Assembly (NCBI GenBank): GCA_964655765.1
Contig: CAZZNI010000013.1
Span: 616-24,615 of the forward strand
Source: an uncultured Gammaproteobacteria bacterium
GTDB taxonomy: Bacteria > Patescibacteriota > Microgenomatia > PFEM01 > CAYPPS01
Direction: 5' to 3'
DNA length: 24,000 nucleotides
Shown in pieces: positions 2,040 to 17,168 of the stretch. The notes beneath the pieces are model-generated. The model saw only the letters and a program-made list of their open reading frames with translations. It was not told the DNA's origin and made no database searches. The position numbers and the translations under genes are program-made. Each line of letters begins with the position of its first letter. Positions within the stretch are counted from its first letter, which is position 1.

Positions 2040-3608
2040 TTAATAACTAGGTGTATATGGCGGTGCCATTTTTATAATATTGCCCGCTGATTGAAATTCA
2101 TAGTGCAAGTGTGGTCCGGTGGAGTTACCGGTATTGCCGACATAGCCGATAATTTGGCCAATAGCAACTGATTGCCCGCTTTGTAATGAAGAGTTAAAAC
2201 CATCCAAATGGGCATAGAGAATGCTTAGCGGTTGGCCCTTACAAACGGTGGTGATTTTAACATAATTACCGTAGCCGGGGATTTCCCTGTCTAGGACAGG
2301 GTCGTATGCCGTGTCAACACCGAAGCTAAAAACACCATTAGCAGTTGCTTTAATAGGGGTTCCGATAGTAGCCGCAATGTCTATCGCTTCGCGATTATAA
2401 TGAGTGGTTCCGGCAGAATTATTTGGCCGTTGTGTAATGGTGCCTTGAACTGGCCAGGTGGCTACTGGGCAGCCGGTTTTAGGGGTGCCGATAATGATAG
2501 CCAAATTATCAAACGAAATTTGCTCTAGAGCGGTTTGTTCTTGGCTGGTTTTGTCGGTAATTAAAGCTGTGGCGTTAACCGAAACCTGGTTTGCCAGCAT
2601 TGCATCTTGAAATTTTTCAATCGGAGCAGTTGGTATTTCGTATTGCGGAGAAGTCCAACTATTGCCATTCGGCAGATCGGGAATTTCTCCTGATTGCCAA
2701 CTTAAATCGGAGGCAATATATTCGCCCATTTCCTGGTAGGAAGAAGTTAGGTCAAAGGCGGTAAGATTAGTTAAATCGGCGCCGGTTGCGGTAATGGTGA
2801 AACTGTAAACAAAACTGGTGTTATTTTTAATTTTGTCATTGTCAATGCTTTGACCATCACTGATTGGTGTTTGTGCGCCGTTTTCATCAACAAAAAAAGC
2901 TTGTTTTTTGACACTAATATATTGTGACTTTTCTTGCCAGGGGGATAAGCGAGTGGCGCCGGGGACATAAAAAGCCGAAGCAAGAGTAATGATAGTGATA
3001 GCTCCGGTGCCGGCAATTGCGGCAATTGACCCAAAAGTTGGAGTAGCAATAATGCCGGTGCCGATTTCCATTGAGGTAATTTGCGTAAAAACACCGGAGA
3101 GGAAATTAGCCGGTTGTTGAAAAGCCAGGCTAAAACCTTTGCCGGCTAGTGTGCCGATAAAACCGACTGCTTTACTGCCCAGATGAGCGATTGTCGAAGC
3201 GGCCATAAATGATCCGCCGCCAACAATCAAAACTGTGCCTATCCCGCCGCCAATCAAAATCCCTATCGGAAGCATAATCATCCCAGCAGCAGCGTAGAGT
3301 GTTTTATCGGGTCTTTTTAAAGCCTTTTTAAGTTTAATCAAGGCCCAGCTACCGACTTTCTCTAAAACAGTTAAGGCAGCGGCGATTAATTTACTGGTCC
3401 CTTCAGGAAGACCAGTCAAAATCCCCTTAATAGAAGTTAAAACTGTTTTTAAGCCGGCTTTTTTAGCCAACTTGACGGCAGTTTTTTTACCTTGTTGTTT
3501 TAAAACCCCACTGGCTTTACTACTACCAAGGCTGAACAGTTTTTTAAAAAAAGACGGTTTTTTAATCGGTTGGTTTTGATTTTCCTGTTGGTTATTTTCC
3601 TGGTTCAT
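2040..3608 (-). CDS. membrane-anchored M23 (LytM-type) metallopeptidase, probable T4SS-associated peptidoglycan hydrolase
   Basis: The C-terminal M23 signature is HYNREAIDIAA (HxxxD) ... GNTGNSTGPHLHYEF (HxH). The N-terminal half is Gly/Ala/Ile-rich with several predicted TM helices (MIMLPIGILIGGGIGTVLIVGGG, IAAIAGTGAITIITLASAF). I place the start at ATG 3608 (MNQENNQQ...), preceded by GAGGA 8 nt upstream. The listed start at 3755 would add 49 aa running through the VirB4 3' end. The gene overlaps VirB4 by 17 nt. Confidence 0.85.
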   Translation of the reverse strand: MNQENNQQENQNQPIKKPSFFKKLFSLGSSKASGVLKQQGKKTAVKLAKKAGLKTVLTSIKGILTGLPEGTSKLIAAALTVLEKVGSWALIKLKKALKRPDKTLYAAAGMIMLPIGILIGGGIGTVLIVGGGSFMAASTIAHLGSKAVGFIGTLAGKGFSLAFQQPANFLSGVFTQITSMEIGTGIIATPTFGSIAAIAGTGAITIITLASAFYVPGATRLSPWQEKSQYISVKKQAFFVDENGAQTPISDGQSIDNDKIKNNTSFVYSFTITATGADLTNLTAFDLTSSYQEMGEYIASDLSWQSGEIPDLPNGNSWTSPQYEIPTAPIEKFQDAMLANQVSVNATALITDKTSQEQTALEQISFDNLAIIIGTPKTGCPVATWPVQGTITQRPNNSAGTTHYNREAIDIAATIGTPIKATANGVFSFGVDTAYDPVLDREIPGYGNYVKITTVCKGQPLSILYAHLDGFNSSLQSGQSVAIGQIIGYVGNTGNSTGPHLHYEFQSAGNIIKMAPPYTPSY

Positions 3609-5478
3609 TTTGTTTTTCCTCTTGAGCGGCTGTTTTTTCTTGTCTTTCCAGCATCTCTTTTGGCTTAGTGGTGACAAGTTTGTGCTCTTCAGGAGAAGCG
3701 ATGATTCGCAAAGCAACATGATTGGGGCCAGCGAAAAACAAACCTTCGCCAACATCGGCCGAAAGCAATAAGTGTTTTTCTCCCTCGGATAGATAAAAAA
3801 CTTCGGTCAGTTGGTCGATGGCTGCCGGTGACTGTTTCATTAATAATTGCAGCGAAGAGTTGTTGATGATTTCCCGGCCCATTTGGACATTTTGCAGTTT
3901 AACACTCAAGAAATCTTCAACATCTTGAGTAATAGTGGTTACTCCAAGGTAGTATTTTCTGGCCCGTTTGGCGATAGAGGTTAAAAACAGCGCCGAATCA
4001 GGGTGACGCATCATATACCAAGCTTCGTCAACGACCATAATGCGCTTTTTTAATTCTTTTCTGATTCTGGTCCAGATAAAGTCAAGGACAATAAACATAG
4101 CAATTGGCCGCAGGGATTGTTCTAGGTCGCGGATAGAAAAAACAGTAAATGGATTTTTAATATCAACATTAGAATGCTGGTCAAAAATGCCGGCAAAAGA
4201 GCCTTTGACAAACTTTTCCAGTCGGTCTGCTAAGCCTCTGGCCAGTGGATCCTCCATTCCCTGCAAGGCCTTGTAGAGATCTTCCATCAGCGGCGGCTCT
4301 TTTTTTTGAGTTGCCGGATCAGGGGTAATGCCTTTCATTTTGTAAGTTAAAGCCAGTGCTCGGTCAAGTAAAGCCATTTCACTCGGGTTCATGTCGCCCA
4401 TAATGACCTTAAACAGAGAGTGGAGAGAAAGAATTTTTTGGTTAAGTTCGTTTTGGCCTTCTTCGTAGACAGCTGATAAATCAAAGGGGTTAATTTTGGC
4501 TTCAGAGTTAAAGCCGAAGGTGATATATTCGCCGCCAACTGCTTTACAAAGCGTTTCATATTCGTTTTCCGGATCGATAACCAGTATTTCAGTATCAAAC
4601 ATTAATGATCGCAAGATTTCCAGTTTAACGGCATAAGATTTACCGGCTCCGGCTTTGGCAAAGACAACCGAATTGGCGTTTTCTAAATTAAAACGGTCAA
4701 AAATAACCAGTGAGTCGTTGTGTTCATTAATTCCGTAAAGGATTCCTTCATTAGCGGTCAGTTCAGACGAGGTAAAGGGGAAAGTGGTAGCCAGAGAGGT
4801 GGTGTCCATATTTCTGGTAATCATCAGTCTGTCAATACTAGTTGGAATGGTGGCTTTAAAAGCTTCTTCCATTTGCAAGGTGGCGTTTTTGGCGATAATC
4901 ATTAACGAGCCCAAAAGTGACGAAACTTGTTTGGTGGTATGGTTAAGTTCTTCTAAATTGTCAGCCGGGATAGTAATATAGAGAGCAAATTGGAAAAACC
5001 GCTCTGAGCCCTTAACTAACTGCGCTTGGAGTTTTTTGGCGTCTTCCAGCTTGGCAACGGTTGCCGGATTAAGCACTTTACCGCGTTCAACATCAATTTG
5101 AATTTCTGCTTCCATTTCAGCAATTTTTCGTCTTAAGTCATCCAAGACCCCTTTGCCTTCGATTGGATAAACAAACATGGAAACATCTAGTGAGTGGTCA
5201 AAATTAACCAGTGGCCCCAGCCAATTGGCAGAAACAAATCGGGGGTAGCCGGCGACGAAAAGAGTTCTGAAATAGCGGTTCCCGATTTTAAGATAATCAA
5301 AATCAACCTCGATAGCGGCCGGAGCAATAATATCTTTAACTGACAACATTCCCTGTCCCAGCTTGGCGACATTTTCTTCAAAACTAGGCTGTCCTGGTTT
5401 ATTTACCGGTTGATTAACCTGGTTTTGATTTGGTTTAACTGCCGGCTTTTTTTTCTTAAAAGGATTTACTAGTTTCAT
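3592..5478 (-). CDS. virB4: VirB4/TrsE/PrgJ-family T4SS ATPase
   Basis: 628 aa. Walker A is FAKAGAGKSYAV (around 4631-4665) and Walker B is RIMVVDEAWYMM (around 4018-4042), followed by GVTTITQD. The N-terminal pattern IAPAAIEVDFDYLKIGNRYFRTLFVAGYPRFV...WL is typical of monoderm VirB4 homologues. There is an ATGA start/stop overlap with the upstream gene at 5475-5478. Confidence 0.9.
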   Translation of the reverse strand: MKLVNPFKKKKPAVKPNQNQVNQPVNKPGQPSFEENVAKLGQGMLSVKDIIAPAAIEVDFDYLKIGNRYFRTLFVAGYPRFVSANWLGPLVNFDHSLDVSMFVYPIEGKGVLDDLRRKIAEMEAEIQIDVERGKVLNPATVAKLEDAKKLQAQLVKGSERFFQFALYITIPADNLEELNHTTKQVSSLLGSLMIIAKNATLQMEEAFKATIPTSIDRLMITRNMDTTSLATTFPFTSSELTANEGILYGINEHNDSLVIFDRFNLENANSVVFAKAGAGKSYAVKLEILRSLMFDTEILVIDPENEYETLCKAVGGEYITFGFNSEAKINPFDLSAVYEEGQNELNQKILSLHSLFKVIMGDMNPSEMALLDRALALTYKMKGITPDPATQKKEPPLMEDLYKALQGMEDPLARGLADRLEKFVKGSFAGIFDQHSNVDIKNPFTVFSIRDLEQSLRPIAMFIVLDFIWTRIRKELKKRIMVVDEAWYMMRHPDSALFLTSIAKRARKYYLGVTTITQDVEDFLSVKLQNVQMGREIINNSSLQLLMKQSPAAIDQLTEVFYLSEGEKHLLLSADVGEGLFFAGPNHVALRIIASPEEHKLVTTKPKEMLERQEKTAAQEEKQNEPGK

Positions 5479-9641: not shown

Positions 9642-11393
9642 TTAAGTTGTATCAAAATCATCTGCTCCCAATGAGACTGTTCGTCCTCGTTCTTTGATTC
9701 GTCCGCCGGCAATTTTACCGCCAATATATTTAACCCCGCTTGATGCTGCCCCAAACGCTGCTCCCCCGGCCGCATCAGTGCCAGTTTTTACTGCACTAGC
9801 ACCAATTGCTCCCATCGGTCTGGCTATTGGAGATATAGCTTCGCCGAAGCCGGTGCCATATTTCCAGGGATTAACCTGAAGAGCATCTCTAATAATCTCT
9901 CCTGCTTTTGGAATAAGAAAGAATGTCCCAAAGCCCAATAAAGGGACTAAGCCGAAAGATAAAACCCCCCAACCACTGGCAAAAGCGCCTCTAAAAATTT
10001 CTTCGGTTGAAATTGATCTGACTCCGGCTATCAGGGCGTACATTTTGGTGACTAATTCGGCGCTCAAGATAGCACCGGCAGCCGGGGCGGTAACCGGGTT
10101 AGTTAATCCGAATATACCAGCAAAAAATCCCCAAGATTCTTTAAGAGTTTCAATAAAAGTGGCTCCTCCGTGCAATGGAACATAGGTAAGAAAAAAAGCA
10201 GACAGAAGAAACATTCCGAAAACTGTTGGCAAAACAGCAATATTGGCCAAGAGGTTTTTAAACCATTTACCAAAACCTGATTGCCCAGGGATAGCGCCTA
10301 GCGCCAATTGGAGTGGTCCAAAAATAACGGCAAAAACAATTTTAGCATAGGTGGTGATTAATAAAATTGAGATTCGAAGCATAGTATAAACGAGAGCGAT
10401 TAAAATAATTAAATTTAAAATAGGGACAGTCATAACTGCGGCAATGCTAGATAAAGCGCCAACTACCAGTGGGAAAATTGCGGCAAACAAGGCTAGTCCG
10501 ATTTGAGCTCCTTCTGGCAATTCATTGATTGTTGTAACAATAGTGTTAAAGTCTTCTGATTGGGTGATTGAAGACGAAAAAACCTCAAGCAGTAAAAACA
10601 TTACTACATAAGCAAGATCAAGCATAAAGCCGGCAATTGCGTAGGAGAAAGTAACCAATAGTAATGCCATAACTACTTGCGGTATGGCATTTTGAACTGA
10701 AATAATAGTTTGCGGATTAATCTTAACTCTGAACATAATCGCCAGGCCAATAAAAACAAAAATTAGAGCGAAAAAAAGATAGGCGACATTTCGGAAAGCT
10801 TTCCACAGCGGTAAAATCGGACTAAAACCGGAAAATCCAATTCCTTGAGGATTATCTTGGGCATAGGCGGTTTTGGAAAAGCCCATGTTTCTACCTATGT
10901 CGGCGACATAGTCAATTGAAGACACTGGTTGGTTGGTATAAGCAAGGGTAACCACCTTAACGGTATCTCCTAAGGCTCCGCCTGGGAAAGAAGCGTAGTA
11001 TTGTCCGTTGGTTGAGGCAAGGGCGGCTTTATATAAGTTTGGCCCGCCCAGAGATTCAGTTAGCCAATAAACCAGGGCGTCCATTGACCCAGTGGCGCCG
11101 TTGGGACTGGTTCTGGCGGTGCCAGCTATCCAGCCATCCAGATTAATTTCACCGGTTTGGACAGATTCTTCCAGGCTCCGTTTAATTTTAAAATTAGTGT
11201 TTGATTCCAGTAAATCGGGAGTGATATTTTGTGTTTCACTATAAAGATCAGTTTCGACATTGACATCATCTCGGTTGAAGATTGTTGCGGTGGCATCGGT
11301 CGACAATAGTTTGGCGGCAAATCCAATCGCCAAACAAAGCAAGGCAATTTTTCCAAAAGAAAGACTTTTAAATCTCGAATAGAAGAAGTTCAT
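9642..11393 (-). CDS. VirB6/TrbL-like polytopic membrane protein
   Basis: 583 aa. It has an N-terminal anchor (IALLCLAIGFAAKLL), then about 180 aa of extracytoplasmic domain, then at least 6 long hydrophobic helices (for example YLFFALIFVFIGLAIMF, LNLIILIALVYTMLRISILLITTY, VLPTVFGMFLLSAFFLTYV), and a Gly/Ala-rich C-terminal tail. The size, topology and position beside pilin genes fit VirB6/PrgH/TcpH-type channel subunits. Confidence 0.6.
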   Translation of the reverse strand: MNFFYSRFKSLSFGKIALLCLAIGFAAKLLSTDATATIFNRDDVNVETDLYSETQNITPDLLESNTNFKIKRSLEESVQTGEINLDGWIAGTARTSPNGATGSMDALVYWLTESLGGPNLYKAALASTNGQYYASFPGGALGDTVKVVTLAYTNQPVSSIDYVADIGRNMGFSKTAYAQDNPQGIGFSGFSPILPLWKAFRNVAYLFFALIFVFIGLAIMFRVKINPQTIISVQNAIPQVVMALLLVTFSYAIAGFMLDLAYVVMFLLLEVFSSSITQSEDFNTIVTTINELPEGAQIGLALFAAIFPLVVGALSSIAAVMTVPILNLIILIALVYTMLRISILLITTYAKIVFAVIFGPLQLALGAIPGQSGFGKWFKNLLANIAVLPTVFGMFLLSAFFLTYVPLHGGATFIETLKESWGFFAGIFGLTNPVTAPAAGAILSAELVTKMYALIAGVRSISTEEIFRGAFASGWGVLSFGLVPLLGFGTFFLIPKAGEIIRDALQVNPWKYGTGFGEAISPIARPMGAIGASAVKTGTDAAGGAAFGAASSGVKYIGGKIAGGRIKERGRTVSLGADDFDTT

Positions 11394-11441: not shown

Positions 11442-14408
11442 TTATGGACAGTACTGTTGAGAAATGATTTGGCTTTCCTGGCTGTTTGGATTAAGAATGC
11501 CTTTGGAAACACATTGTTTGGCTTTTTCGATACCGCCAAGGTAAGGGAAGTAAAAATCACCCTTGCCGGGATTAGCTTGTGAGCTCTCATTCATTAGTTT
11601 TTGCTCTTTATCGGAAGCAATGGAGCTGTTGGAAATTTTGCCTTGATAAGAATAGCCAACGGTGCTTTTGGCATTGTCGTCTGGATAGGAGTCCATATCG
11701 GCCGGGCGGAAAATATCAAAAACTCCTCTTTGGTTCCCGCCTGAATAGGAATCACCGATGGTGTAATCGCGAATTTTACCAAGAACAGGAATTTGAGTGT
11801 CAATACCCATCTTTCGATAAAGAATTAACGGGTTATAATCGCCGTATTTGCGCCAACGGCACTCTTCTTTACATCTTTCTCTTTCATCCTGCTGGTCGGC
11901 TCTAGGGTATTTATCGCGGCACTTGTCGATACATTTATTTAGATCGGATAAAAGTTTAGTTAATTGTTTTTGGCTTAAGGTAGCTCGGTAATCAGTGGCG
12001 GTCATCACTGTTTCAATTGGATAAGGACTGGCGCAAATCGGATCGTTGGGGTTGATATCAGTAATAGCATCCATTTTGCAGGTGGGAGGAGTATAACGGT
12101 CAGGGTTTTTGCAAAGATTAGTCGGCGTGCTTGTTGGCGCTCCAATACTGGAGCAAGAAGTACTGGTTATTTCTCCGGTTGCCAAGTCAACTTTTCCCTG
12201 ACATTGGTAGTTAGTTTCTCGGATTACCTGGTCGTCAGTGTGAATATGGGGATTAAAAACAGTAACTGTTATGGTAAAGTTGCCGTTTTCATCAACTTGG
12301 GCTGGTAGTAGTCGGGAAGCGTGATTGGGGTCGGTGCTGTCGTAGTAACCTGGTGTTCCACCAGAATCGTCGAGGTTCCCGCCGTTGGCGGCAAACCAGA
12401 TGTGCATGCCAGCTTGTGCCGGACCGGTTAGTCCTTCAATGCGGATGCCGTAGTCAATCGTATTTGTTGCTGAGTTGTACCTAATATTTTCTACTCCAAC
12501 CTGGTAGGCGTATTGAGGTTCGTCGTTCGTTTCTGGTTCTGCGGTGGTGTTGGCTTGGGCCAATTGAACTGTTTCTCCTAAAGCCAATTTGTAGCCGCAG
12601 TAGCTGCTTGATTGAGCTAGTTCTTGGTCAATTTCTTTCCCATTTGGGGCGGCGACAATTACTCCTGGATTGGTAGTTTCAGAGGCGACAAGCCCTTGTT
12701 GTGCAAATTCTGGCATCAGGTGTTTATTTAATTCTTGAGTGGCTTGATAAATGGTTGCCAGATGAGGGAATGAAAGCTGGTAATTTGTGATTGATAGTTG
12801 TCCTGGTGTTCGTTGTACTTGTAGAGTTAAAGTTCCAGGAGCGTCTTTGAGTGTTGTTAATGGAATGTACGGCCACAATTTAGCCCAATCACTGCCAAGC
12901 CAAACTTCGTATTCAGCCAACCAGGCTTCCATTTCAAGTTGATAAGCCATTCGTTTTGTTTCGCTGGCGCCAGGGTCAGGATATTTTGGCTCAGTACAAG
13001 GGGTGTTTTTGAACCGGCCTTTGAATTCGGCTAACTTTTTCGGCTTCGGCAGGTGGGGGTTATCCTTAAATGGAATTTGATAATTTTCGTTTGGGTCGAT
13101 AAGAGCGGTTTCAATCATCTTACAACGCAAGACATCTTGGTATTCCGGGCTGAAAAGCTTACTCATGACTCCGGCTTGCGCTTTAGCTTCTTTATTAAAT
13201 TCTTCGCTACCAACTGGGTTTTGCGGTCCTTTGCCGACCAGCGATCCGGTAAAGTAGCGGGCGAGATATTTTGATTCTTGGTTTAACGGCGGGAAATTAT
13301 AATAGCCGACAAAAGGGACGGTAGTACTGGTGATATCTAGTTCAGCTACTCCGCCCCAAGTTCTTTCGAAATAGGCAACATTTTGTTGATCGTCGCGATC
13401 ATCCGGACAATACTTAAGTTCGCTGGCATCTTCGTCCCAGCCATGAGGGCCGTTACCTTCGTGGATATAAAACCAGGTGTCTTGTTCCATAACAAAAGTT
13501 TCGGCACAGGCCTTAATTGGTTCCTTAACTTCTCCACCGCAATCTTTACAGGCAGCCGGTCTATAAACTCCGGGCTTAGCGGCCGGGTTTTGACAAGTCA
13601 ACGGCGGTGGGGTGGGGGTGATAATGGTGGGCGGCATATTAAGGATAGCCAATAATTCTGGCGGTAAAGGATTAAGATCGGGGTTTAAGAGCCACCATTC
13701 TAACCAACGAGGGTCTTTAAAAGCACCGGTGTCGCGAATAGCGACAAATAATTCGTCTCTTGCGGTGCCGATTCGTTGTCCGGCGTCTAGCGCTAACATG
13801 AAAGTTCGGCCGGTTTCGATTGCTTGATGATACATATCAACAATCGACTGGTCGACATTAAAGTTTTCAAGATAAACAGTGTATCCGCTAACAATATCGT
13901 CCTCAGCAGTGAATTTGAGGGTAATTCCGTTTTCGTCAGCATGTAAAACAATCGCGTTGTAGCCACCACCAATGTCATAATCAGCCCAAGGAACATTAAC
14001 TTCTGCTCCAGGAGTGATATTAAAACCAACATAAGTTGCCCCGGTTCCTTCGTGGTCGGCCCAAGAAGCTGGGTGATCATTTTCAGTTGGGTTAAGATTG
14101 GCAACAGATGTGACAGTTGGAGTGGTTCCGTTCCAATCGGGTGTTAAGGTTAGAAGTTGCGGCGCGCCAGGGTCAGTGTCGTGCTCAAAAGGATATACTT
14201 GGCGATTGTCATTATCAACCAGGGTGTAAGTGTACTGGTCAATATTATATTCAGGATTATCGTCAACATAACAATCAGTGTAGTCGCCGGTAGCAGGATC
14301 ACAAGCAGCCAGTAAATTAAGCGGGGAAAAGTTTTTGGCAAACAATAGTCCAATAACAACAATGGAAAGAAAGAGGATTAGTTTTTGTGAAGCTGTTATT
14401 TTGGACAT
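11442..14408 (-). CDS. 988-aa N-terminally anchored, cysteine-rich surface protein; candidate adhesin or pilus-tip factor
   Basis: I place the start at ATG 14408 (MSKITASQKLILFLSIVVIGLLFAKNF), which removes the overlap with the upstream pilin gene that the listed 14468 start creates. There is a single N-terminal hydrophobic helix. I counted about two dozen Cys, several in clusters (CDPATGDYTDC; CQNPAAKPGVYRPAACKDCGGEVKEPIKAC; CKNPDRYTPPTCKMDAITDINPNDPIC; CIDKC...CKEEC). I recognise no enzymatic motif. Confidence 0.75.
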   Translation of the reverse strand: MSKITASQKLILFLSIVVIGLLFAKNFSPLNLLAACDPATGDYTDCYVDDNPEYNIDQYTYTLVDNDNRQVYPFEHDTDPGAPQLLTLTPDWNGTTPTVTSVANLNPTENDHPASWADHEGTGATYVGFNITPGAEVNVPWADYDIGGGYNAIVLHADENGITLKFTAEDDIVSGYTVYLENFNVDQSIVDMYHQAIETGRTFMLALDAGQRIGTARDELFVAIRDTGAFKDPRWLEWWLLNPDLNPLPPELLAILNMPPTIITPTPPPLTCQNPAAKPGVYRPAACKDCGGEVKEPIKACAETFVMEQDTWFYIHEGNGPHGWDEDASELKYCPDDRDDQQNVAYFERTWGGVAELDITSTTVPFVGYYNFPPLNQESKYLARYFTGSLVGKGPQNPVGSEEFNKEAKAQAGVMSKLFSPEYQDVLRCKMIETALIDPNENYQIPFKDNPHLPKPKKLAEFKGRFKNTPCTEPKYPDPGASETKRMAYQLEMEAWLAEYEVWLGSDWAKLWPYIPLTTLKDAPGTLTLQVQRTPGQLSITNYQLSFPHLATIYQATQELNKHLMPEFAQQGLVASETTNPGVIVAAPNGKEIDQELAQSSSYCGYKLALGETVQLAQANTTAEPETNDEPQYAYQVGVENIRYNSATNTIDYGIRIEGLTGPAQAGMHIWFAANGGNLDDSGGTPGYYDSTDPNHASRLLPAQVDENGNFTITVTVFNPHIHTDDQVIRETNYQCQGKVDLATGEITSTSCSSIGAPTSTPTNLCKNPDRYTPPTCKMDAITDINPNDPICASPYPIETVMTATDYRATLSQKQLTKLLSDLNKCIDKCRDKYPRADQQDERERCKEECRWRKYGDYNPLILYRKMGIDTQIPVLGKIRDYTIGDSYSGGNQRGVFDIFRPADMDSYPDDNAKSTVGYSYQGKISNSSIASDKEQKLMNESSQANPGKGDFYFPYLGGIEKAKQCVSKGILNPNSQESQIISQQYCP

Positions 14409-14415
14409 AATGTTT

Positions 14416-14796
14416 TTATGTTCCAGGGATTTCAAAGACAGTAACCTTGATGCCGGTAAAGCTTTCAATTAACAGCAAAATAAACCAAGAGATGATTATT
14501 AAGGCCAGGCCAAAAATAGCGTAAGTGAGAGTTTTTTGCGCCCCAGCGGCTTTTTCCGGGTCGCCGCCGGCAGTAAGATACTTAATGCCGCCAACCAGTA
14601 ACATAATAAAAACAGCCAGACCGGCAAAACGCAAAGCATAATTAAAAACAATTTGAAAAACACAGCCAATATCCTGAAGAGTTGCTGCATCGTTTTTGGC
14701 TGTGTCACTCCAACAATCATTACCTGCTGCACAGGCAACAGGTAAATTAGTGACAAATAGAACCGGTAACAGTAAAACCGCAATTATTTTTTTCAT
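14416..14796 (-). CDS. T4SS pilin-like (VirB2/TrbC-type hairpin) paralogue P7, with cleavable-looking signal peptide
   Basis: I place the start at ATG 14796 (AGGA lies 9 nt upstream). The listed 14904 start overlaps the previous gene. The signal peptide is MKKIIAVLLLPVLFVTNLPVACAA. The core is FAGLAVFIMLLVGGIKYLTAGGDPEKAAGAQKTLTYAIFGLALIIISWF, that is TM1, charged loop, TM2. Confidence 0.8.
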   Translation of the reverse strand: MKKIIAVLLLPVLFVTNLPVACAAGNDCWSDTAKNDAATLQDIGCVFQIVFNYALRFAGLAVFIMLLVGGIKYLTAGGDPEKAAGAQKTLTYAIFGLALIIISWFILLLIESFTGIKVTVFEIPGT

Positions 14797-17138: not shown

Positions 17139-17168
17139 ATGATAAGTTATTGCCTATTTTCCTGTCAA
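17139..17168 (-). promoter_or_regulatory. sigma70-like promoter of the pilin operon, predicted leaderless
   Basis: The minus strand reads TTGACA (perfect -35, 17168-17163), 18 nt spacer, then TATCAT (17144-17139), then 7 nt (taagaca) and the ATG at 17131. Confidence 0.5.

Follow-up and report, generated by a model that had tools for sequence, protein, structure and literature searches.

Type IV secretion systems (T4SSs) of Patescibacteria are unusual in that they pair a Gram-positive-type machine with VirB2-like pilins, and in the one system tested the T4SS was essential for epibiotic growth (PMC10633639). A 2025 survey of patescibacterial T4SSs (PMC12102498) found no adhesin, PrgB-like ones included, and no VirB5. 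In Gram-negative T4SSs, VirB5/TrwJ is a pilus-tip, pilus-nucleating protein that is thought to sit on the VirB6 platform (PMC12857230). Elsewhere, wall-hydrolase-like proteins form part of the machine; PrgK of the enterococcal pCF10 system carries a degenerate LytM domain, which earlier work cited in PMC11323569 found able to bind peptidoglycan, and Tra11/Trs15 of lactococcal pNP40/pUC11B, which are predicted peptidoglycan hydrolases, were proposed as conjugation adhesins (PMC11067333; PMC12857230). Here we describe a protein of 988 amino acids (aa) that is encoded between an array of VirB2-like pilin genes and a gene for a VirB6-like membrane protein, at 11442..14408 on the minus strand of a 24,000-nucleotide (nt) stretch of contig CAZZNI010000013.1 (the whole of this stretch is hereafter "the window"). 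A preliminary description, made from the letters of the sequence, had proposed it as a cysteine-rich, anchored surface protein and a candidate tip adhesin or host-recognition factor. Our analysis strongly supports that it is an extracytoplasmic component, linked to the T4SS, and that it belongs to a new family, and we put at about even the chances that it serves as an extracellular adaptor or adhesin of the pilus/VirB6 assembly, binding the cell wall or the host envelope.

Searches of Pfam, NCBIfam and PHROG with the whole protein and with pieces of its core gave no significant match, and PDB-sequence searches (phmmer and profile) gave nothing significant either, in agreement with the earlier statement that no catalytic or adhesin family could be recognised. 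Matches to Wza, FitB and carbonic anhydrase in the PDB sequences were weak and were set aside as motif-level chance. Word-indexed searching for homologues missed nearly all of the full-length family (2 and 4 matches). It took scans of contigs and an exhaustive run of HMMER against 1.84 billion representatives, which at E <=0.001 returned 667 matches to the 988-aa protein. Their coverage splits at a proline-rich linker; about 135 of the 151 listed matches span only residues ~45-245, the head of the protein, and about 40 clusters span the remainder, residues 270-988, which we call the core.

Loci were gathered from species-representative genomes (7) and from metagenome contigs (33). A pilin gene lies immediately upstream of the intervening gene in 31/31 loci with enough flanking DNA and a VirB6-like gene lies downstream in 29/30, so the position first noted for the window holds across the family; several of these loci are near-duplicates and about 20 distinct lineages remain. 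Complete loci have the order IspA (pointing the other way), pilins, intervening gene, VirB6-like gene and, further on, PrgI, TrsD and VirB4. One related locus comes from a metagenome-assembled genome of Candidatus Beckwithbacteria, of the Microgenomates group. Moreover, at least 20 genomes of the window's class (Microgenomates-type Patescibacteria) have a pilin match that is closely followed, on its own strand, by a family match. Members share a core with 12 conserved cysteines, the motifs RPxPCxxC, FPH, FxIFRP and YxPYLGG..AK and the position between pilin and VirB6-like genes, all of which are present in the window protein. No database family covers either the core or the head, and the "pilin-VirB6 intervening protein", as we call it here, is an undescribed family.

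A check of presence and absence against the pilins found a homologue (E <=1e-5) in 62/201 sampled genomes of the class and T4SS pilins in 192/201 of them. Among ~280 genomes of other classes, within a phylum-wide sample of 301 genomes, there was one match, and it covered the N-terminal domain only. Among the genomes searched the family is thus restricted to the class, in two thirds of which it is either lacking or has diverged beyond recognition. A counterpart in the T4SS of Saccharibacteria was considered and not retained; none is evident in the locus annotation of Southlakia epibionticum (PMC10633639), and the phylum-wide core matches are confined to the window's class. Giant relatives of 1500-2560 aa occur in other families of the class (L048 478-8172, L049 5582-11257, L050 2625-7283 and L051 2096-6586), that of L050 being directly followed by a VirB6-like gene. 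Fusions of these giants to VirB6 were ruled out, as their only hydrophobic segment is N-terminal.

The extracytoplasmic placement proposed earlier is borne out by a signal peptide throughout the family. In fact, all full-length homologues start with a basic n-region and a single hydrophobic stretch, which usually closes with A-x-A and then a cysteine (LLAA|C in the window protein; YAA|C, VFAA|C, LAG|C, FAV|C and LAA|PC in others), and in many of them a second cysteine follows 2-9 residues after the first. In the 988-aa protein a Kyte-Doolittle scan detected just this one stretch, at residues 4-27, with no further transmembrane (TM) segment. The predicted Sec signal peptide occupies residues 1-35 (14304..14408; this and all further features of the protein are on the minus strand) and consists of the n-region MSKITASQK, the h-region LILFLSIVVIGLLFA and the end ...NLLAA|C. 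The source genome (705 kb, 96% complete) has a gene for signal peptidase I (SPase I), and LspA was sought in it and not found. Given the A-x-A-Cys pattern, the second cysteine, the presence of SPase I, the failure to find LspA and a lipobox that is not conserved, it is more likely that the N-terminal "anchor" of the preliminary description is a signal peptide that is cleaved by SPase I and leaves a small N-terminal disulfide loop; the single hydrophobic segment stands, and permanent anchoring by it probably does not. Lipoprotein status is less likely. Two Lgt-like genes in the genome and the LLAAC of residues 32-36 would fit it, but the corresponding residues of homologues (FAVC, AAPC, AAVC) do not keep a lipobox and LspA was not found. 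The genome carries four sortase genes; a regular-expression search of the 988-aa protein for LPxT[GAS] found no LPXTG-type signal, and its C-terminus (...SQIISQQYCP) is not hydrophobic.

The protein holds 21 cysteines, slightly fewer than the two dozen first estimated, though the count is indeed high and the cysteines are clustered. They make up 2.1% of its residues against a genome median of 0.58% (open reading frames of >=150 aa), and no other among the 98 reading frames of >=500 aa in the genome has as many. The clusters lie at residues 36/46, 272-334, 736-850 and 966/987. The family conserves twelve of the cysteines, of which cluster 1 contributes five (272, 287, 290, 301 and 334) and cluster 2 seven (766, 777, 792, 826, 830, 846 and 850). 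It is worth mentioning that several cysteine-rich exported proteins are encoded in this genome, among them one with 18 cysteines in 826 aa on contig C10.

A full-length AlphaFold2 model built on 30 family members reached a mean predicted local distance difference test score (pLDDT) of 76, with confident domains parted by segments of low confidence at residues 27-47, 245-268, 567-632 and 661-698. The first boundary after the head is the flexible linker NPLPPELLAILNMPPTIITPTPPPLT (residues 246-271, 13596..13673), where pLDDT drops below 50 (245-268) and homologue coverage falls from ~135 to ~50; the proline-rich linker between domains that had been read from the sequence is therefore found again in the model as a low-confidence segment. 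It is followed by part A of the core (residues 272-566, 12711..13595), in which cysteine cluster 1 (C272, C287-x2-C290, C301, C334) precedes an alpha/beta region. Part A is mostly modelled at pLDDT 84-95, and its residues R283, P284, C290, W351, P365, F366, Y381, Y385 and G388 are invariant, with H549 and D522 nearly so. A poorly conserved segment of low alignment occupancy and pLDDT 28-45 (residues 567-632, 12513..12710) leads to a beta-sandwich-like insert (residues 633-760, 12129..12512; DSSP strands at 635-755), which is the least conserved region family-wide, yet the best conserved one (70-87% identity) between the two species of the genus, that is, against P0002. Part B (residues 761-988, 11445..12128) contains C766, C777 and C792 of cluster 2, a DxNPND loop, a twin-CX3C hairpin, FDIFRP and YFPYLGG..AK. 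The hairpin, CIDKC…CKEEC (C826/C830 and C846/C850, 11856-11972), has all four cysteines conserved in the family, and its helices (813-833 and 837-851) are antiparallel in the model with pLDDT 88-96. It gives a weak, motif-level match to zf-Tim10_DDP, of the mitochondrial Tim10/DDP family (E 0.04).

As a whole, the core of ~720 aa had no Pfam match even at E <=10 and none among PDB sequences, and when PDB and BFVD were searched by Foldseek with the full model, no match fell below E = 0.001, the viral matches having TM-scores <0.1. An NTF2/VirB8-like core was considered and found unsupported, and matches to orange carotenoid protein, cystatin and HIT proteins were weak (probability <=0.33). The structural check suggested in the preliminary description thus yielded no confident match of the window protein to an intact enzyme, while in some relatives its head is replaced or supplemented by modules of glycosidase-like or lysozyme-like type.

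The head could be placed with more detail. Residues 47-245 (13674..14270) form, by AlphaFold2 and Foldseek, an N-terminal LytM/M23-like beta-fold domain. When it was modelled alone (residues 41-262, alignment of 64 sequences), pLDDT was 87.8 and the predicted TM-score 0.85. The top 12 Foldseek matches in PDB are all M23/LytM proteins (probability 0.69-0.99, E 0.012-0.18, TM-scores 0.3-0.43), including NMB0315, the Campylobacter peptidoglycan peptidase (6jn7, 6jmx, 6jmy), LasA, Csd1-Csd2, pseudoalterin and Csd3, and also the non-enzymatic SpoIIQ and the degenerate LytM domain of the T4SS hydrolase PrgK. The best PDB match of the full-length model is again an M23 protein, Csd3. When the head was compared by hhalign with an M23 alignment drawn from genomes of relatives, the match ran colinear to the M23 layout and was statistically weak (P 0.002-0.013, probability 3-6%). 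With high match probabilities on one side and poor E-values, low TM-scores and a weak hhalign result on the other, we regard the fold as LytM-like with moderate confidence. The whole protein has no Pfam match at E <=0.1, Peptidase_M23 (PF01551) included, residues 47-245 contain neither of the zinc-binding motifs HxxxD and HxH, and hhalign, in a low-confidence alignment, places non-ligand residues at the M23 motif positions.

The head belongs to an unannotated family that counts at least 1490 members with lengths of 115-365 aa, many of them from Chloroflexota, and for which no Pfam model exists. Free-standing members often carry a LysM fusion, and one has LysM together with SH3_3, both of them wall-binding domains. 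A triad of histidines is kept in 50/57 free-standing relatives and lost in 7/7 T4SS-linked copies examined, the window protein having N51, N138 and Y179 at the triad positions. For this reason, the T4SS-linked head has the look of a wall-associated domain turned pseudo-enzyme, and the large, often LysM-fused His-triad family may be a new family of cell-wall enzymes. The free-standing family also has invariant D39, D186 and D192.

Family members share the core and differ at both ends. At the N-terminus they carry the LytM-like head, a module "X", X followed by the LytM-like head, a GH-A glycosidase-like barrel above the Pfam cut-offs (Glyco_hydro_cc, 24.0 bits with a cut-off of 21; Cellulase, 26.8 with 23.5), a CarboxypepD_reg/Big_1 immunoglobulin (Ig)-like region or almost nothing. 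At the C-terminus there is either no extension, a stretch of ~150 aa of unknown type, or 217-262 aa with E[ST]…GPMQ motifs that appear lysozyme-like (P0003, P0007, P0009 and P0023), those of P0003 and P0023 giving sub-threshold matches to Muramidase (E 6e-4) or SLT (E 8.5e-3); the window protein itself has no SLT/muramidase or CHAP catalytic domain in Pfam. The head is exchanged even within one genus, between the window protein and P0002. Module X, which has no Pfam match, replaces or precedes the LytM-like domain at the N-termini of the congeneric P0002 (residues ~35-245), P0003 and P0015. The intervening protein is 27-30% identical to that of the window where VirB4 is 74-77% identical, the lowest identity in the locus. 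In one pair of strain variants, L020 (1607-4456) and L021 (2039-4882), the first 400 codons are identical (synonymous divergence, dS, ~0) and the following ones have dS 0.5-1.5; such a pattern reads as an intragenic recombination mosaic with a breakpoint near the start of the second half of the core.

The preliminary observation of a real 988-aa reading frame at a T4SS locus is confirmed by the open reading frame and its translation (988 codons and a stop). Its start was taken as the ATG at 14408, 7 nt past the TAA of the last pilin gene, rather than the TTG at 14468, because the frame of 1008 aa opened by the latter runs into the pilin gene and the ATG yields the "MKK-hydrophobic" type of N-terminus seen in homologues. 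Immediately upstream and in the same orientation are seven tandem T4SS_pilin (VirB2-like) genes (Pfam PF18895; 14416..17131, minus strand). The gene 48 nt downstream (9642..11393, minus strand) encodes a polytopic membrane protein of 583 aa with an N-terminal anchor and ~8 hydrophobic helices; a match to a VirB6 hidden Markov model was sought for it and none was obtained, so it is called VirB6-like by topology and position. The best sigma-70-like promoter match of a consensus scan, TTGACA-18-TATCAT (17139..17168, minus strand), stands ahead of the first pilin gene, in a scan whose count of such sites did not exceed that of shuffled sequences, and a scan of the minus strand from the last pilin gene through the intervening gene to the VirB6-like gene found no terminator-like site. 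The seven pilins, the intervening protein and the VirB6-like protein would then be encoded in one operon.

Elsewhere in the window there are genes for PrgI/VirB3-like, TrsD-like, VirB4 and TM-anchored M23 proteins as well as dnaN, and the locus is an origin-proximal, monoderm-type T4SS as described for Patescibacteria (PMC12102498). The TM-anchored M23 protein, at 2040-3755, occupies the PrgK-like position. Public titles of "uncultured Gammaproteobacteria" or "Pseudomonadales" are attached to L003, L004, L007 and L008, all of which clearly carry the patescibacterial T4SS locus, and are probably placeholder or wrong labels. Regarding the pilins, P0104 (896 aa) joins a T4SS_pilin-like segment (26.3 bits, just below the cut-off) to a C-terminal LytM-like head, and pilin matches in the class often lie within reading frames of 400-520 aa; pilins with large extra domains seem to be common.

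Putting these together, we envisage a protein that is made from a transcription unit probably shared with the seven VirB2-like pilins and the VirB6-like protein of a chromosomal monoderm-type T4SS, and is exported by Sec as a subunit of ~950 residues, probably freed from its signal peptide. The presumably cysteine-stapled core of ~720 residues, common to all members, would dock onto the pilus/VirB6 assembly, and the exchangeable head, here an inactivated LytM-like domain, would bind but not cut peptidoglycan or another envelope polymer. Relatives would do the same envelope-engaging job with glycosidase-like, Ig-like or lysozyme-like modules. As to the target, we tilt towards the host envelope, that is adhesion or host recognition, rather than the cell's own wall, because relatives include heads that are not peptidoglycan-specific and heads are exchanged within a genus. 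The adhesin or host-recognition role first proposed thus keeps part of its ground, with a head like inactivated peptidoglycan-hydrolase domains, swapped heads and the most diverged protein of the locus in its favour, and no similarity to an adhesin family or to VirB5. Nothing, on the other hand, places the protein at the pilus tip. Perhaps the protein fills the vacant place of VirB5 in what is the only monoderm T4SS known to be piliated, its core sitting on the VirB6 platform, nucleating the pilus and riding its tip and its head, of whichever type, setting the host range; we hold this to be unlikely. The VirB5 analogy comes from gene position and from the fact that the piliated systems have no recognised VirB5.

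A different target for the same architecture is the cell's own peptidoglycan, on which the protein could act as a scaffold or regulator that guides the pilus or channel through the wall or keeps its passage open, in an assembly role like that of PrgK, VirB1 or VirB8. The LytM-like head, itself degenerate, would serve to control or position a genuine hydrolase, for instance the M23 protein at 2040-3755. Such a role stays alive since degenerate LytM domains commonly regulate hydrolases, a TM-anchored M23 peptidase gene lies in the same locus, some relatives have a lysozyme-like C-terminal domain as VirB1-type proteins do, and Patescibacteria seldom show a detectable VirB8 homologue (PMC12102498), leaving a structural role unfilled. 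Yet the GH-A glycosidase-like and Ig-like heads of relatives are not expected to act on peptidoglycan, a partner of the conserved own wall would not be expected to swap its head within a genus or to be the most diverged protein of the locus, and no NTF2/VirB8-like match was better than probability 0.3. We therefore judge a self-wall role to be rather improbable, though a serious contender.

The core might also be a new hydrolase or transferase that acts on surface polymers of the host, in a secreted enzyme or effector that shares the operon, is set free in the contact zone and is not a structural part of the T4SS. Its conserved polar residues and invariant cysteine, the fusion of relatives to glycosidase-like or lysozyme-like modules, as in multi-domain secreted enzymes, and the lack of a membrane or sortase anchor once the signal peptide is probably cleaved would all suit this. 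We find it quite doubtful nonetheless, for the core matches no enzyme family or fold, the head of the window protein has lost the His triad of its family, and the near-perfect order of pilin, intervening gene and VirB6-like gene in ~20 lineages argues for a stoichiometric part of the machine. That same order, at 31/31 and 29/30 loci, makes it hardly credible that this is an unrelated surface protein whose place beside the T4SS has no functional meaning. The small share of class genomes with a detectable homologue (62/201, next to 192/201 with pilins) would be in keeping with chance adjacency, but the gene stands 7 nt and 48 nt from its neighbours, no terminator-like site was found in between, and searches outside the class with this type of locus did not turn up the core.

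Several observations weigh against an envelope-binding adaptor or adhesin, which is still the reading that we favour. The core has invariant C290 and R283 and near-invariant H549, D522, D784, D789 and K964, and since it has no recognisable relative it may yet turn out to be enzymatic. The number of conserved cysteines is odd in each cluster, and metal binding by the CxxC and CX3C sets is an alternative to disulfides. DsbB and VKOR were sought in the source genome and not found, which makes disulfide formation an assumption. The LytM assignment is at fold level and weak (TM-scores of 0.3-0.43, no match below E = 0.01, hhalign probability 3-6%). Family matches in 31% of class genomes, as opposed to pilins in 96%, mean that many lineages either have a very divergent form of the protein or can do without it. 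Finally, between strain variants (90-99% identical) a crude Nei-Gojobori ratio of nonsynonymous to synonymous substitution rates (dN/dS) is 0.14-0.21 with no window of codons above 1, and diversifying selection was not detected.

Being conserved, class-specific, extracellular and encoded between the pilins and the VirB6-like gene, this family offers a concrete candidate for the part of the patescibacterial T4SS that touches a cell wall, the host's or its own. Its swappable heads give a handle on host specificity, and if the comparison to VirB5 is true, they would set the host range throughout a class of uncultivated bacteria. Moreover, the analysis brings to light the large unannotated domain family with its conserved His triad to which the head belongs.

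Among described proteins, VirB5/TrwJ is like the intervening protein in being Sec-exported and encoded beside virB2 and virB6, and patescibacterial T4SSs have VirB2-like pilins and no recognised VirB5. Yet VirB5 is helical and has ~220 aa, whereas the window protein is alpha/beta, cysteine-rich and of 988 aa; Pfam and NCBIfam gave no VirB5 match, and no VirB5-like structure is among the Foldseek PDB matches listed. PrgB-type LPXTG adhesins share the general idea, here proposed, that a monoderm T4SS makes cell-cell contact through a large surface protein, and differ in that the window protein has no LPXTG and, by Pfam, no polymer adhesin or glucan-binding domain. Residues 47-245 have true homologues in the free-standing, often LysM-fused "HHH" proteins found in Chloroflexota and other bacteria (33-49% identity; E values against the profile go down to 1e-86); these have 200-370 aa, are secreted, carry three near-invariant histidines and lack the core.

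Closer in concept are the wall-hydrolase-like proteins of Gram-positive-type T4SSs. The LytM domain of PrgK (PDB 8s0u, PMC11323569) is, like the head, extracellular, of M23/LytM fold and without HxxxD/HxH, it ranks ninth among the fold matches of the head (probability 0.97), and PrgK carries a lysozyme-like domain as some family members do. PrgK is, however, TM-anchored, encoded in the virB1 position and built as LytM-muramidase-CHAP, while the window protein joins its LytM-like head to a novel cysteine-rich core of ~720 aa, is encoded between the pilins and the VirB6-like gene and has no homology to PrgK at the sequence level. Tra11/Trs15 resemble it in the notion of a wall-hydrolase-like domain of a Gram-positive-type T4SS that binds the partner's wall and does not cut it. 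Their systems have no pili and their adhesion was shown by clumping assays, whereas the likeness of the window protein to them is conceptual. A T4SS surface protein that uses an inactivated wall-hydrolase-like domain is therefore a concept with precedent, and the family that appears to embody it here is new.

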